Source of the DNA: Syntrophomonadaceae bacterium
GTDB lineage: Bacteria; Bacillota; Syntrophomonadia; Syntrophomonadales; DTU052
Assembly (NCBI GenBank): GCA_012729505.1
Contig: JAAYDA010000048.1
Coordinates: forward strand, 70,222 to 134,221
Reading direction: 5' to 3'
DNA: 64,000 bases
Of this stretch, positions 26,711-61,711 are shown piece by piece. The position numbers and the translations under genes are program-made. How positions within the stretch are numbered: position 1 is the stretch's first letter; each line of letters opens with the position of its first letter. Below the pieces are notes generated by a model. It did not search any database and was not told where the DNA came from. It was given only the letters and a program-made list of their open reading frames with translations.

Positions 26711-27121
26711 CTATACGCTTTTGAGAAAATCATCAGGGGAAATCGCTTTAACAGGAGAGTCATTGAAGTCCTTCAGGTTCCGGGTAATGATGCAATCGAC
26801 TTTTCCCCGTTTGGCGCAGACAGCAAGCAAAGCGTCTTCGTAATCCGGCATGGGGAGCTCCAGCGCCTTCTCGCAGTCAGCGCCGGTGACATCCAAAATG
26901 TTAAAAAGCGTAAAGAGTTTGAGAAGGGCCTGCCTGCATTGGGTGTCGTCGCGCAGATACTTGTGCAGCAGATAGTGAAGATCGGTTACGCTGTTTGCTG
27001 TAATGCAAGCGCTGATTTTGTCCTCGGCAGCCATGATGAACAGCTTTTGAGCGGGTTCGTCGAAAGGGACGCGAGCAAGCAAGGCGTCCAGTATGACATT
27101 GGTGTCAATCAATACATTCAT
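26711..27121 (-). CDS. vapC: PIN-domain toxin (VapC-like ribonuclease)
   Basis: 136 aa. N-terminal MNVLIDTNVILD (first acidic PIN residue), later acidic residues, and C-terminal IITRNLKDF. The 5' end overlaps the upstream antitoxin by 17 nt. Confidence 0.85.
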   Translation of the reverse strand: MNVLIDTNVILDALLARVPFDEPAQKLFIMAAEDKISACITANSVTDLHYLLHKYLRDDTQCRQALLKLFTLFNILDVTGADCEKALELPMPDYEDALLAVCAKRGKVDCIITRNLKDFNDSPVKAISPDDFLKSV

Positions 27122-27332
27122 GTCGGCTCAAACGTTCCTCTCTTGCCTGCTCCAAGGAAGCATCGGCAGGCAAAATGCCAAACAGCGATTTGGCCATCTC
27201 AACTTTATCTTGGTTGATGCTGATGAGCTTGGCGACACGCTTCCCATTTTTAGTGATATAGATATCCTCTTCGGAAACAAGCGCCAGATACTTCCCAATG
27301 TTGTTTTTAAACTCAGTGGCGGTGATTAACAT
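27105..27332 (-). CDS. Phd/YefM-type antitoxin
   Basis: 75 aa. N-terminal ITATEFKNNIGKYLALV...IYITKNGKRVAKLIS is typical of Phd/YefM antitoxins. GAGGAGG SD. Immediately upstream of the PIN gene. Confidence 0.8.
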   Translation of the reverse strand: MLITATEFKNNIGKYLALVSEEDIYITKNGKRVAKLISINQDKVEMAKSLFGILPADASLEQAREERLSRHECID

Positions 27333-28491: not shown

Positions 28492-28501
28492 GGCATAGAT
28501 G

Positions 28502-28521
28502 AAATCTCCTAATTGAGATTT
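28502..28521. promoter_or_regulatory. 7-bp inverted repeat AAATCTC-N6-GAGATTT just upstream of the -35 above
   Basis: Read directly. The position (about -45 to -65) would suit an activator/repressor site. No family assigned. Confidence 0.2.
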
Positions 28522-28594
28522 TCATCTCATTACTTTTATAGGAGTGTTACCCATGTCTTGAACCATTTCTGTTACCTATTCCTAACCGAACTGT

Positions 28595-28756
28595 CTTTCG
28601 TCCTCCCCGTCCCCCCGTTCTCACATTCTCCTTTCGCCTTTCGCCTCACCCCTCACGTCCTCCCCTTTCGCCTTTCTCCTTTCGCCTCACCCCTCACCCC
28701 TCACGTCCTCCCCTTTCGCCTTTCTCCTTTCGCCTCACCCCTCACCCCTCACTCCT
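28595..28756. repeat. polypyrimidine heptad tandem array, locus A (two identical 48-bp units plus degenerate flanks)
   Basis: 28654-28701 and 28702-28749 are identical. Each unit reads tcctccc ctttcgc ctttctc ctttcgc ctcaccc ctcaccc ctcacg. The plus strand is almost purine-free. Confidence 0.9.
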
Positions 28757-28853
28757 AATAGAATAGACTAATTTGTTAATTGGAAGTAGACTATAAGAGA
28801 ATTCTAAATTAATAATCATTTATGCAATACTTTCATAAAAAAGGAAGGTTCAA

Positions 28854-37680: not shown

Positions 37681-39018
37681 TTAGAAAGGCAGTTTAAAAC
37701 CGCCCTTTTTGCCCTTTTTAACAGCCATTTCTGTCAATTGCTTCATCATACGGCGAGTCTCGTCAAATTGCTTCAGCAATCGGTTGACTTCCTGCACCCT
37801 GGTGCCACTGCCCCGGGCAATCCTTTTCTTGCGACTGCCGTTTAAAATAGCCGGGTCCCGCCTTTCCTGGAGTGTCATAGATTTAATAATAGCTTCAACA
37901 TGAGCGATTTCCTTCTCATCAATTTCCGGTTTCACACCCTTTAATTGCTTGCCCATCCCTGGAATCATCCCGGCCAATTGATCTAAGGGCCCCATTGACT
38001 TAACCTGCTGAAGCTGTTCCAGAAAATCATCCAGAGTATACTCCTGATCACGGATTTTCCGTTCTAACTCCTTGGCTTTCTTTTCATCGAAGGATGCCTG
38101 GGCTTTTTCCACCAGAGTAAGGACATCACCCATCCCCAGTATTCTTGAAGCCATGCGATCAGGGTAAAAAGGCTCCAAGGCATCTAACTTCTCACCGGTT
38201 CCGGTAAATTTAATCGGACAACCTGTTACTGCTTTGACTGACAAGGCTGCCCCGCCGCGGGTATCCCCATCCAGCTTGGTTAAGATCACCCCGGTCAGCC
38301 CCAGGTCCTGGTGAAATGATTCCGCTACATTTACTGCGTCCTGACCGGTCATAGAATCTACCACCAATAGTTTTTCATGAGGCTCCACCTCAGTGCTTAT
38401 ATCCTTTAGCTCCTGCATCAATTCCTCATTAACATGCAGTCTGCCGGCAGTATCGATAATCATAATATCCCGGTTTTGATTGCGGGCATATTCCCGCGCC
38501 CCGCGGACAATACTAACCGGATTTTCCTGTCCCATGGAAAAGACCGGAACTCCTACCTGTTCACCCACAACTTGAATCTGCTTTATGGCCGCGGGACGAT
38601 AGACATCACCCGCTACCAGCATAGGCCTGCGTCCCTGTGATAAGTAATACTGAGCTATCTTTCCACAGGTTGTAGTCTTACCGGCCCCTTGAAGACCAAC
38701 CATCATAATTATCGTCGGAGGCTTGGAACTCAGCACTACTTTGGTCTGATTGCCTCCCATCAGTTCGGTCAGTTCCTCGTAGACGATCTTAACCACCTGC
38801 TGGCCCGGAGTCAGACTGTTCATTACGTCCTGGCCAATAGCTCTCTCCTTGACTTTAGCCACAAAGCCCTTGACAACTTTGAAATTAACGTCAGCTTCCA
38901 ATAGGGCCAGGCGGACTTCGCGCATCACATCATTGACATCATCCTCGGTCAGCTTACCCTTGCCCTTGAGGCGTCGGAAGGTTTCCTGCAACCGAGTGGC
39001 CAATCCCTCAAAAACCAT
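37681..39018 (-). CDS. ffh: signal recognition particle protein Ffh
   Basis: MVFEGLATRLQETF N-domain, GLQGAGKTTT, DTAGR, TKLDGD, and a Met-rich M domain. ATG 39018 follows AAAGGAG (ORF-track TTG at 39027). Confidence 0.95.
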   Translation of the reverse strand: MVFEGLATRLQETFRRLKGKGKLTEDDVNDVMREVRLALLEADVNFKVVKGFVAKVKERAIGQDVMNSLTPGQQVVKIVYEELTELMGGNQTKVVLSSKPPTIIMMVGLQGAGKTTTCGKIAQYYLSQGRRPMLVAGDVYRPAAIKQIQVVGEQVGVPVFSMGQENPVSIVRGAREYARNQNRDIMIIDTAGRLHVNEELMQELKDISTEVEPHEKLLVVDSMTGQDAVNVAESFHQDLGLTGVILTKLDGDTRGGAALSVKAVTGCPIKFTGTGEKLDALEPFYPDRMASRILGMGDVLTLVEKAQASFDEKKAKELERKIRDQEYTLDDFLEQLQQVKSMGPLDQLAGMIPGMGKQLKGVKPEIDEKEIAHVEAIIKSMTLQERRDPAILNGSRKKRIARGSGTRVQEVNRLLKQFDETRRMMKQLTEMAVKKGKKGGFKLPF

Positions 39019-39385
39019 TCCCGTCAACTCCTTTCGGAATGCTGTCTGTATTCAGTACCTGGGCTAATCTATCCGCAGCCTGGGCAATTAAGTCTGTATT
39101 ATTATGGTCCGGCCGGCTCAAGATAAGGTAAGCTTCCTCAATTTTCTTCCTGTCCTCTTGAAATCTGTGAACCAGCATTAATTTTTCTTCATATCTTTCC
39201 AGGGCCTGTTCAGTTCTTTTTAATAAATCAAAGACCCCTTGACGAGTAATAGCCATTTGCTGAGCCACTTCCGAAAGACCAAGGTCGGCCTCATAGTGAA
39301 GCTCAAAAACTTGCTTCTGGCGCTCGGTCAAAAGAGGGCCATAAAAATCAAACAGGATTACCAGCTTATCCAGCTTCTCCAGCAA
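39008..39385 (-). CDS. ylxM: YlxM (UPF0122) putative HTH protein of the ffh operon
   Basis: LFDFYGPLLTERQKQVFELHYEADLGLSEVAQQMAITRQGVFDLLKRTEQAL is the UPF0122 signature. TTG 39385 follows AGAGGTGA by 5 nt (ORF-track GTG at 39394). Confidence 0.85.
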   Translation of the reverse strand: MLEKLDKLVILFDFYGPLLTERQKQVFELHYEADLGLSEVAQQMAITRQGVFDLLKRTEQALERYEEKLMLVHRFQEDRKKIEEAYLILSRPDHNNTDLIAQAADRLAQVLNTDSIPKGVDGNGF

Positions 39386-39425
39386 ATTTATCACCTCTTG
39401 TAAAGCACTAATACTTTACAATAGG

Positions 39426-39497: not shown

Positions 39498-39763
39498 TCT
39501 CTCGCCTTTCGCCTTCCGCTTTCCGCCTTCCGCCTTTCGCCTCTCACCTATCTCCTCTCACCTCTCACCTTACCCCTCTCGCCTTTCCCCTCTCGCCTCT
39601 CGCCTTTCCCCTCTCACCTCTCACCTTACCCCTCTCACCTATCTCCTCTCCCCTCCCGACTCCTCTCGCCTCTCGCCTCTCGCCTTTCCCCTCTCGCCTC
39701 TCGCCTCTCGCCTTTCCCCTCTCGCCTCTCGCCTTTCCCCTCTCGCCTCTCACCTATCTCCTC
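39498..39763. repeat. polypyrimidine heptad tandem array, locus B (37 heptads, consensus CTYTCRC)
   Basis: 23 in-phase 7-mers from 39499, a 3-nt slip, then 14 more. Contains nested 21/28-bp higher-order units. At most one purine per heptad on the plus strand. Confidence 0.9.
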
Positions 39764-39820
39764 AAATGTTCTATCTTTTCCTCCCCAAAGCATAAACATA
39801 TACATGAAAGGGGGAGCAGT

Positions 39821-40948
39821 ATGGGAACGCTGAGGCAATTCTATCCGGGAGGCAATACCTGTCAGGGGTTTTACTCGTTTTATCACTATATAGTCAACCC
39901 ACGGGCGACCCGTATCTTTGTTTTAAAGGGTGGCCCTGGGGTCGGGAAATCCACCTTTATGAAAAAATTCGCCCGCGAATTTGAGAAGACCGGTTTCAAT
40001 CTGGAGCTGCACTGGTGTTCATCAGATAACGACTCACTGGATGCTTTAGTACTATCCGATTATGAGATCGCTTTATTGGATGGAACCAACCCCCACATAG
40101 TTGACCCCCGGTATCCCGGAGCGGTTGATGAGATCATCAACCTGGGCGAATGCTGGAATGAAGCCCTTTTGATCCATAGCAAGCTGCCAATCATTGACTT
40201 TACTGATTCCATCGCCAGATATTTTCGTATGGCCTACTTGCGCCTCAAAGAAGCCCAGACCGTCTGGAACCAATTACACGAATACTATCTGGAATCAGTA
40301 CCCAAATCCTTCGGTTATCATATCCTCCGTCAATTAAAGCAAGAATTAGCTGATACGAAAGCTTTTCCGGCAGGAGATATGAACAGCACCCGTCATCTGT
40401 TTGCATCTGCCATTACTCCCCTGGGAGTGGCAACCCATGCGGCCAGCCTTATTCAGGATCATAGAATCTTAGCTCTGCAGGGAAATCCCGGCACCGGAAT
40501 GCATGAAATTCTTCAAGACCTTCTCCAGTGGTCGTACCAGAAGTCCATTCCTGTGGAAGTTTATCATAATTGCTTCAATCCGGATTTACTGGAAATACTG
40601 GTCTTCCCACACCACAGAATTGCAGTTGTGGATGCATCCGGCCTAGTGGTTAATTTTGAGAAAACCCTGAGCAAGGTTGCGGAAGGCCGGATTTTTGATT
40701 TCAATGGGGAGATTGATCCCGGAAGAATTATGCGTTTCAGCGGAGAAATCGAGGATGCCAAAGAAAGGTTTAATACTTCTTTGTTAGCCGCCATTGGGTT
40801 CATCAATCTGGCTAAACAGAACCATGACCAATTGGAACAGTACTTCATTCCTGCCATGAACTTTACTCAAGTTGACCAGGTATATCATACTACCCGGGAA
40901 CGGATCCTGGCCTATGTTGCCAACTCCAAAGAAAGCGGGAAGCTCTGA
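39821..40948 (+). CDS. double P-loop NTPase of unknown function (PRK06851-like)
   Basis: 375 aa. First Walker A GGPGVGKST and a second degenerate GNPGTGMH about 190 aa later. AAAGGGGGAG SD. Family name recalled from memory. Confidence 0.7.
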   Translation: MGTLRQFYPGGNTCQGFYSFYHYIVNPRATRIFVLKGGPGVGKSTFMKKFAREFEKTGFNLELHWCSSDNDSLDALVLSDYEIALLDGTNPHIVDPRYPGAVDEIINLGECWNEALLIHSKLPIIDFTDSIARYFRMAYLRLKEAQTVWNQLHEYYLESVPKSFGYHILRQLKQELADTKAFPAGDMNSTRHLFASAITPLGVATHAASLIQDHRILALQGNPGTGMHEILQDLLQWSYQKSIPVEVYHNCFNPDLLEILVFPHHRIAVVDASGLVVNFEKTLSKVAEGRIFDFNGEIDPGRIMRFSGEIEDAKERFNTSLLAAIGFINLAKQNHDQLEQYFIPAMNFTQVDQVYHTTRERILAYVANSKESGKL

Positions 40949-60751: not shown

Positions 60752-61711
60752 ATGAACGAACTATTGCGACATTTCTCACTTCAAGTTGATCTGGCCATGG
60801 AAGCTCGCGATCTGGTCAGAGGTGATTCTGATCTTGAAATCCCGGGGGTGATTGAAGAAATCGAAGAATTACGCAATGGCAAGATTACCATAATCAGAAT
60901 TACCGATTCGGCAGCTGAAAAAAGAATGGGTAAGCCCATTGGGACCTATGTTACAATTGAAGCCAAAAACCTGAGAATAAGGGATCCGGAAGTTCACGAA
61001 GAGGTATCTCAAGCTATCGCCGGCAAACTCAAAAATGCTGTAGATAAAATCGATCCGAAGGCACCGGTCCTTTTGGTTGGCCTGGGAAATTGGCGGGCGA
61101 CGCCTGATTCCCTGGGTCCCAAAACAATTGAGTCCAGCCCGGTAACACGCCATTATTATAAATATGCCCCCCAGGCCCTGGTGGAAGGGATGCGGCCAGT
61201 TTGCGCCATTTCTCCAGGAGTATTAGGGACCACCGGCATAGAGACCTTCGAAATCATCAAAGGGATAGTTGAAAAAATCAAGCCGGCCTTGGTGCTGGTA
61301 ATCGATTCTCTTTCGGCTCAAAACACCGAACGAATTGGAAGCACCATACAAATATCCGACACCGGCATTCAACCCGGATCTGCTCTGTCCAGTGTGAATC
61401 GCCAGGTAATAAATCATGAGTCTTTGGGAGTGCCGGTGATCGCCATTGGTTGTCCGATGGTTGTAAATGCTGTGACAATTGCTGATCAAGCGGTTCAAGC
61501 TTTCTGTCAAAAAAGAAACCTGCCCTATGACCGGCAGGAAAGTGTAGAGACAATAAAACCGGTACTCTCGTTTTTTGGAGGAAGTCTGACCGTAACCCCA
61601 AAAGAGGTAGACGATCTGGTTGAAAACGTCTCTAATGTAATATCATACGGAATTGCTTACTCACTATTTCCAGAGATCTCCCGTGAACAACTTGAACTTT
61701 ATGCTCATTAA
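60752..61711 (+). CDS. gpr: spore germination protease GPR
   Basis: VLLVGLGNWRATPDSLGP, SPGVLGTTGIETFEIIKG, TIQISDTGIQPGS, and LGVPVIAIGCPMVV align with B. subtilis Gpr motifs recalled from memory. GGAGG SD. Confidence 0.85.
   Translation: MNELLRHFSLQVDLAMEARDLVRGDSDLEIPGVIEEIEELRNGKITIIRITDSAAEKRMGKPIGTYVTIEAKNLRIRDPEVHEEVSQAIAGKLKNAVDKIDPKAPVLLVGLGNWRATPDSLGPKTIESSPVTRHYYKYAPQALVEGMRPVCAISPGVLGTTGIETFEIIKGIVEKIKPALVLVIDSLSAQNTERIGSTIQISDTGIQPGSALSSVNRQVINHESLGVPVIAIGCPMVVNAVTIADQAVQAFCQKRNLPYDRQESVETIKPVLSFFGGSLTVTPKEVDDLVENVSNVISYGIAYSLFPEISREQLELYAH

Follow-up and report, generated by a model that had tools for sequence, protein, structure and literature searches.

A 265-bp pyrimidine-rich heptanucleotide repeat array in the divergent ylxM/ATPase spacer of a Syntrophomonadaceae bacterium

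Tandem repeats with a seven-nucleotide unit form the most over-represented class of long simple sequence repeats (SSRs) in many bacteria, and polymerase slippage has been given as the explanation (PMC4692102, PMC4679880). The families described include the short tandemly repeated repetitive (STRR) sequences of cyanobacteria, the GGGAATC repeats of Xanthomonas, the GGGGA(C/T)T repeats of Nostoc, the TAACTGA repeats of Beggiatoaceae and the heptamers of Geobacter (PMC4692102, PMC4679880, PMC2670836, PMC2700814). Heptamer repeats are found beside the same flanking genes in related species, with length and sequence varying (PMC4692102). The STRR sequences are tandem 7-bp units in non-coding DNA, of unknown function, some of which form hairpins in transcripts (PMC2670836). 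The Xanthomonas and Nostoc repeats contain canonical G-quadruplex (G4) motifs, have been studied as G4 formers and lie between divergent open reading frames (ORFs) in 7-8% of cases (Rehm et al., 2015; PMC4692102). Sets of TAACTGA comprise 2-6 copies directly upstream of start codons, and a translational role has been proposed for them (MacGregor, 2015; PMC4679880); here the corresponding spacers of relatives are shorter and free of repeats, and contig ends fall within the repeats (PMC4679880). Here we describe a heptad array in a 64,000-nt stretch of DNA (hereafter the window; positions 70,222 to 134,221 of contig JAAYDA010000048.1, assembly GCA_012729505.1) from an uncultured Syntrophomonadaceae bacterium of anaerobic digesters. 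This array, which we call array 2, lies in the spacer between ylxM and a divergently oriented P-loop ATPase gene; a second, array 1, is situated at 28595-28756. When the literature was searched for tandem repeats of Syntrophomonadaceae, no relevant report was found.

We conclude that array 2 is a long new case of a known kind, the STRR-like bacterial heptanucleotide long SSR, and that it is probably a non-coding, lineage-specific minisatellite which grew by slippage and is tolerated without any specific function. Its origin by slippage is close to certain; that it has no sequence-specific function is what we infer from negative evidence. The plus strand of 39499-39763 is pyrimidine-rich (C147, T86, G19, A13; 88% pyrimidine) and reads over its 265 bp as 37 heptads, with 23 heptads followed by a CTC, 14 further heptads and a trailing CTC. 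This agrees exactly with the parse of 23 heptads, CTC and 14 heptads in an earlier note, which had been made from the sequence alone. Tandem Repeats Finder (TRF) reported a period of 7 with 37.4 copies and a score of 223, and a pattern of two heptad units, allowing one mismatch, matched 28 times in the window versus 0.39 expected, a number reached by none of 100 shuffles. By both measures the head-to-tail iteration of array 2 is far above chance. All 28 matches fall in array 2 or array 1, and the other pyrimidine-rich stretches in the window are short and without heptad periodicity.

Ten unit variants are present in array 2, among them CTCTCGC (13 copies), CTCTCAC (seven), CTTTCCC (five) and CTATCTC (three). 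The earlier description of the array as 37 copies of CTYTCRC is therefore right as to the heptads and too strict as to the motif, since 22 of the 37 units fit it. Similarly, its statement that every heptad starts with CT, ends with C and carries at most one purine applies to 36 of 37 units and not to all; the deviating units are TTTCCGC and CTCCCGA.

The units are arranged in nested higher-order blocks. When the commonest units are coded as a (CTCTCAC), b (CTATCTC), c (CTTACCC), g (CTCTCGC) and f (CTTTCCC), units 7-21 read [a b][a a c][g f g g f][a a c][a b], and these are followed by two degenerate units and the CTC slip (39660-39662). The part to the left of the slip (39499-39659) is the older, heterogeneous sub-array, and the part to its right (39663-39763) is the younger and more uniform one, reading [g g g f][g g g f][g g f] g [a b]. 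Its first 56 nucleotides (39663-39718) are a duplicated 28-bp block, CTCTCGC three times plus CTTTCCC, with copies starting at 39663 and 39691. Three copies of CTCACCTATCTCCTC occur in array 2 (at 39543, 39634 and 39749), as do two copies of the 22-mer CACCTCTCACCTTACCCCTCTC (at 39559 and 39615), so that all of the higher-order units listed in the earlier note were found. The longest exact internal repeat is 45 nt, at an offset of 28 and starting at 39662. This structure points to stepwise block duplication and, because the nested duplications involve blocks of two to six units, it supports growth by replication slippage or unequal exchange, as had been proposed. Two other readings of the array, as CRISPR-like or as iterons, were rejected because there are no spacers or the period is wrong. 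A likeness of GGCGAAA to the Spo0A box, TGNCGAA, was not followed, as the majority unit, GCGAGAG, fits it poorly.

The exact ATPase sequence is assigned by NCBI annotation to a Syntrophomonadaceae metagenome-assembled genome (locus tags GXY50_*) and recurs in digester metagenomes, which allowed independent assemblies of the locus to be compared. Three independent metagenome assemblies have an identical 426-nt ylxM/ATPase intergenic region, and three others end inside array 2. In all, five independent spanning assemblies, three for array 2 and two for array 1, match the window exactly; all of them are short-read assemblies retrieved by exact protein identity. The sole difference observed was a 1-nt change of a C-run in a partial contig (L137), and there were no length variants. 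Array 2 is not an assembly artefact, and its assembled length is credible because its longest internal repeat is only 45 nt and the three independent assemblies agree.

On the left of array 2 is ylxM (UPF0122; 39008-39394, minus strand), with which the ylxM-ffh-rpsP-KH-rimM-trmD operon begins, and on its right is the gene for the PRK06851-family ATPase (39821-40948, plus strand), whose ATG at 39821 is 57 nt beyond the end of the array, as noted earlier. A sigma-70-like site for ylxM-ffh, TTGACT-17-TAAAAT (39454-39426, minus strand), which the earlier note had also recognized, is kept in two relatives (L128 and L132), and since it lies to the left of array 2 the ylxM transcript is expected to be free of the array. 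For the ATPase, the same note had seen no convincing promoter downstream of the array. We aligned this region from five species, these being that of the window, a relative with 84% identity in the ATPase and three relatives at 58-59%, and found that a block, GTTCT...(17-18 nt)...GCATA.A, is conserved in all five at 20-40 nt upstream of the start codon. In the window this candidate promoter occupies 39769-39798 (plus strand), with a -35-like TTCTAT at 39769-39774 and a -10-like TAAACA within the GCATAAACA block at 39790-39798. We infer that this block is the ATPase promoter. Because it lies downstream of array 2, the array is probably between both -35 boxes and in neither of the flanking transcripts.

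The ylxM leader has a feature of its own, a palindrome (GTAAAGCACTAATACTTTAC, 39399-39418) between the -10 box and the ribosome-binding site, whose arms (GTAAAG...CTTTAC) are also kept by relatives with 58% identity in the ATPase. It may serve the ylxM-ffh operon as an operator or as a hairpin in the leader.

Comparison with relatives shows that the gene arrangement is shared more widely than the array. In relatives with 58% identity in the ATPase (L128-L132) the divergent ylxM/ATPase pair is kept with a spacer of 177-183 nt that is array-free, and the 329-nt spacer of another relative (L272; 59-64%) is also array-free. The array therefore represents a gain of about 265 bp in this lineage, within an inter-promoter gap of about 50 bp whose length itself varies in the family. 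The closest relative (GCA_012511475.1; 84% identity in the ATPase), represented by two independent records (L127 and L166), has a different and short array upstream of its ATPase gene, (CCTCACG)x6.3 or about 45 nt, versus the 37 mixed units of the window. This array ends just before AAAATGGTCTAT, where the window has AAATGTTCTAT at the corresponding right junction. Either the junction has held a heptad array since before the split of the two species or it is a hot spot for their formation. In both cases, unit sequence and copy number have been exchanged completely. As the two arrays share a right junction and differ in unit and length, the position would appear to be inherited, with unit sequence and length turning over quickly. 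Such rapid turnover, in which unit and length differ in a close relative and more distant ones (L128-L132 and L272) lack the array altogether, is that of long SSRs, and this single junction is a clear example of it. About 160 kb of flanking and related Syntrophomonadaceae DNA yielded no further period-7 array except that of L127. There were also none in about 10 kb beyond each end of the window, which leaves two arrays in the 64 kb and the roughly 20 kb that adjoin them.

We propose that replication slippage and unequal exchange of multi-unit blocks built array 2 within a species-level Syntrophomonadaceae lineage, and that it was seated in the spacer of about 50 bp between the -35 boxes of the ylxM-ffh and PRK06851 ATPase promoters. 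This spacer would lie outside both transcripts and is variable among relatives, so that an insertion there could expand to 265 bp without harm to a gene or a leader; it is this location between divergent promoters that would have made the array tolerable. Its only likely effect would be a separation of the two promoters by about 25 helical turns. The pyrimidine bias of one strand would simply reflect the founder unit that chanced to be amplified.

An alternative is that array 2 is a cis-regulatory spacer or insulator that separates or tunes the divergent promoters, for instance by decoupling the supercoiling that their transcription drives, and that its length alters expression in a phase- or rheostat-like manner. 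Both arrays fill exactly the inter-promoter gap of a divergent gene pair, and the 84% relative retains an array at the same junction, as would be expected of such an element. However, that array has only about 45 nt and a different unit, and the more distant relatives manage with a gap of about 50 bp. SSRs that cause phase variation are located in the -35/-10 spacer, the 5' untranslated region or an ORF, whereas array 2 is upstream of both putative -35-like boxes and so outside the spacers in which unit number normally switches promoters. Nor do the three plus two full-length assemblies contain a length variant, although with short-read assemblies retrieved by exact protein identity this is a weak test. 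Phase variation, which had been proposed earlier, is accordingly not favored, and we consider a spacer or insulator role in general unlikely. This and the other tests of function described below were computational, and each lowers the hypothesis to which it was applied.

Array 1 (28595-28756, 162 nt) has the same polarity as array 2 and was identified by TRF with a period of 48, 2.8 copies, 95% matches and a score of 234. Its units, CTTTCGC, CTTTCTC, CTCACCC, CTCACGT and CCTCCC, are thus organized in a 48-nt higher-order repeat. It occupies the spacer of divergent enoyl-CoA hydratase and thioesterase genes and lies between promoter-like sites for the hydratase (28491-28463, minus strand) and the thioesterase (28787-28816, plus strand). 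The earlier claim of a second array of like motif style and polarity in an equivalent divergent context therefore holds. An orthologue of array 1 was sought through homologues of the enoyl-CoA hydratase, of which those at 82% identity were in another gene neighborhood.

Directly to the left of array 1 is a sequence that we refer to as the head (TCTGTTACCTATTCCTAACCGAAC, 28568-28591, plus strand), with a degenerate second copy at 28545-28564. The head is identical at 21 of 24 positions, with one 1-nt gap, to the left flank of the ATPase-upstream array in the 84% relative, TCTGTTACCTATGTCCTGACTGAAC (L127 1-25; L166, end of the reverse strand), and the score of this alignment was reached by none of 20000 shuffles. 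Judged by this alignment, arrays at non-homologous loci are homologous at their left junctions. There are two explanations for such sharing, an assembly chimera formed through the common CCTCACS units or a repeated element that ends in the head. The latter underlies a second alternative, in which the arrays are the footprint of, or attached to, an element that is mobile or dispersed, the head (TCTGTTACCTAT.TCCTRACYGAAC), possibly together with a hairpin at 28498-28526, being an element end beside which arrays form or ride. Consistent with this, both records of the 84% relative's contig (L127 and L166) stop no more than 2 nt from the head. Furthermore, in a record that is probably from the same organism (L271 1-200, reverse strand; a YlxM relative at 84%), the spacer sequence rightward of the ylxM promoter turns into about 190 nt of unrelated sequence which, with TTGACG-17-TATCAT and an AAGGAG ribosome-binding site, resembles the start of an inserted gene; a search for this insert in plasmids gave no match. 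On the other hand, array 2 has no head, no further copy of the head was found in the 64-kb window, the fetched loci or a viral collection, there is no transposase nearby, and the chimera through CCTCACS units may account for the sharing. We consider the mobile-element explanation improbable. Still more doubtful is its extended form, in which the arrays would be variable tails of an undescribed dispersed Syntrophomonadaceae element whose head, possibly with the upstream hairpin, marks an element end or recombination site that seeds pyrimidine heptads upstream of promoters. It could pass from one locus to another, such as from the spacer of the enoyl-CoA hydratase and thioesterase genes to that of ylxM and the ATPase gene.

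Several further observations concern the surroundings of array 1. The hairpin at 28498-28526 has a stem of 11-12 bp (GATGAAATCTC ctaatt GAGATTTTCATC) and is located about 40 nt to the left of the head. Approximately 100 nt around it are missing from the region upstream of the enoyl-CoA hydratase gene in a relative at 89% identity (L266), and the hairpin might be the remnant of an element end. The same record has, at 70-110, a heptad-like tract of about 35 nt (GCCTCCGCTTTCTCGCCTGCCCGCCTCC) just upstream of the -35 of the hydratase gene, and this tract runs in the opposite polarity to array 1. In the window, a pair of genes for a PIN-domain toxin and a PhdYeFM antitoxin (26711-27332) lies beside the array 1 locus, between acyl-CoA dehydrogenase-like and enoyl-CoA hydratase genes.

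Three of the findings above weigh against a tolerated minisatellite without function. Firstly, two arrays of like polarity, both in divergent promoter spacers and no more than 11 kb apart, are more than would casually be expected, with n = 2. Secondly, the arrays are identical in all spanning assemblies, which is unlike an unstable neutral repeat, though retrieval by exact protein identity biases the set towards a single clone. Thirdly, the significant 24-nt head that is common to arrays at non-homologous loci in two species hints at something beyond local slippage.

The strand asymmetry of array 2 raises the possibility of non-B DNA, that is, a triplex, an i-motif, a G-rich or a slipped-strand structure that forms under the negative supercoiling of divergent transcription. 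The 88% pyrimidine strand between divergent promoters, the nine C3-4 runs of array 2 and the (CCCCTCA)-type units of array 1 are features in keeping with such a structure, and G-rich heptamers in Xanthomonas and Nostoc have, as described above, been studied as G4 formers. However, nearly each heptad is interrupted by a purine, so the pure pyrimidine runs of array 2 are mostly 6-13 nt and at the longest 16 nt, and perfect mirror arms reach 14 nt at most, too little for an H-DNA tract. No G4 motif of the form (G3+ N1-7)x3 G3+ occurs in either array, even with loops of up to 12 nt, and G4 or i-motif formation is not indicated. This hypothesis, which the earlier note had put forward, is poorly supported by the sequence, and we regard it as decidedly improbable.

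The earlier note had also raised two roles in RNA, a purine-rich minus-strand transcript that acts as a sponge for ribosomes or CsrA, and a CU-rich leader of the ATPase gene on the plus strand. As a further possibility, such a leader might be bound by cold-shock proteins, which recognize heptamers of pyrimidines. The minus strand of array 2 contains 14 GGA and four AGGAG rather than the approximately eight GGA/AGGAG motifs counted previously. There are flagellar genes nearby, and for CspB of Bacillus, binding to heptamer repeats at one protein per heptamer has been reported (PMC4679880). In addition, a promoter-like site on the minus strand, CTGACA-16-TAGAAT (39865-39838), is found inside codons 6-15 of the ATPase gene and points into array 2. 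This site matches the consensus at 10 of 12 positions, which is at chance level (two sites versus 0.9 expected), and it is present in the 84% relative but not in the 58% relatives. As it falls in the conserved coding motif FYPGGNTCQG, it is probably a chance match. Rfam gave no match at gathering or at permissive E-value thresholds, other than noise. When array 2 was folded as a 265-nt RNA, the plus and minus strands had minimum free energies of -3.6 and -18.8 kcal/mol (z = 1.23 and 0.36, respectively, relative to shuffles), and both strands are predicted to be essentially unstructured. The features of CsrB/RsmZ-type sponges, a promoter, a terminator and GGA or ANGGA displayed in hairpin loops, are lacking, as no terminator was found at array 2, the CsrA-type core ANGGA has no occurrence in it and there are no hairpins that present GGA. 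For the leader, the conserved promoter-like block downstream of array 2 argues against its inclusion in the ATPase transcript. We expect neither of these roles to apply, and judge an RNA function of any sort to be very improbable.

Frames of 62, 83 and 107 aa are open across array 2, and gene callers have annotated the 62-aa ORF as a gene in three metagenome contigs. A repetitive peptide, (LSPLASR)n from the plus strand or (ERREARG)n from the minus strand, could in principle be encoded. Yet heptads of C and T cannot give rise to a stop codon, so that all frames are trivially open; moreover, relatives lack the array, and the 84% relative has a different unit. Searches of Pfam and NCBIfam with the three ORFs of at least 60 aa in array 2 and with the ORF of array 1 produced no matches. 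These results uphold the earlier reading of the region as non-coding, and array 2 lies, as heptanucleotide SSRs do, in non-coding intergenic DNA. The likelihood that the array codes for a peptide is in our view negligible.

The occurrence of CT-rich heptad arrays elsewhere was examined in two scans. The first, of one genome per species with (CTYTCNC)x4, gave at least 120 matches and was too permissive to map the family in the source genome. The second, of Joint Genome Institute (JGI) metagenomes with CCTCACSCCTCACSCCTCAC (CCTCACS-type triplets), was likewise too permissive, with at least 120 matches; among the matches listed, only L166, a duplicate of L127, was relevant. The matches listed came from cyanobacteria, Bacteroidota, Gemmatimonadota, Acidobacteriota, Latescibacterota, methanotrophs and others. 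Among them are at least 33 pyrimidine-rich segments of at least 100 nt, and two of 328 segments reach 200 nt. The longest pyrimidine heptad arrays among the matches listed are near-perfect (CTTTCAC)n arrays of 320 nt in Methylotuvimicrobium sp. KM1 (L023 3917-4236) and 201 nt in Methylomicrobium sp. wino1 (L048 1711-1911). In 79 arrays of other phyla, array orientation had no significant bias relative to local GC skew (46 vs 31, p = 0.18). With CT-rich heptads in many phyla and heptamers as the most over-represented long SSR class (PMC4692102, PMC4679880), the novelty for Firmicutes that the earlier note implied was overstated.

Two side observations concern other loci. Six records of Acidobacteriota, Latescibacterota, cyanobacterial and other origin (L038, L061, L085, L103, L160 and L232) have at least two separate heterogeneous pyrimidine heptad arrays per 5-15 kb, which suggests that there are dense dispersed families in those genomes. 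In the window itself, one metagenome contig (start of L265; window position about 60563) ends 188 nt upstream of the gene for a germination protease (Peptidase_A25) at 60752, and no repeat was detected there.

Array 2 matters mostly for annotation and assembly, as it generates spurious ORFs, has given rise to a 62-aa "gene" in public metagenome annotations and breaks short-read contigs of this digester syntroph. It also extends the known range of long heptanucleotide repeats to the Syntrophomonadaceae. Should the head-linked explanation or a role in regulating divergent promoters prove true, the locus would be a convenient one at which to study the over-representation of heptamer repeats in bacteria, a problem of long standing.

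The comparison with known systems supports the placement of array 2 among the long heptanucleotide SSRs. Phase-variable contingency SSRs, such as those of Haemophilus and Neisseria, are similar in being tandem repeats in a promoter region whose length could in principle change by slippage. Those repeats are between the -35 and -10 boxes, in 5' untranslated regions or in ORFs and are polymorphic in populations, whereas array 2 is upstream of both -35 boxes and invariant in the assemblies. The TAACTGA repeats of Beggiatoaceae and cyanobacteria are likewise intergenic direct repeats of a heptamer, sometimes mixed with other heptamers; array 2 differs from them in its 37 copies and in its position upstream of a candidate promoter. 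With the Xanthomonas and Nostoc repeats the arrays share strand-asymmetric G-rich/C-rich heptamers and a mostly intergenic location, but they have no canonical G4 and both of them are between divergent genes.

The cyanobacterial STRR sequences resemble the arrays in consisting of tandem 7-bp units in non-coding DNA, and several cyanobacterial genomes are among the CT-heptad pattern matches listed, so the comparison with STRR made in the earlier note is apt as to kind. STRR units are of the CCCCAGT, TTGGTCA and CAACAGT types, while those of array 2 are CTCTCGC, CTCTCAC, CTTTCCC and similar. Moreover, each genome with STRR has many dispersed copies, and some of these form hairpins in transcripts, whereas here two arrays were found in about 84 kb, and these arrays cannot fold and appear to be outside transcripts; the phylum also differs. 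The closest likeness is to the long heptanucleotide SSRs of Mrazek et al. (2007), as these are represented in PMC4692102 and PMC4679880. Like them, array 2 consists of head-to-tail 7-nt units in an intergenic region with a presumed origin by slippage, differs in length and sequence between close relatives and breaks assemblies within the repeats. Relative to most such repeats, array 2 is much longer (37 units, 265 bp), is heterogeneous, with ten variants arranged in higher-order blocks where most others are monotonous, and is almost purely pyrimidine on one strand.

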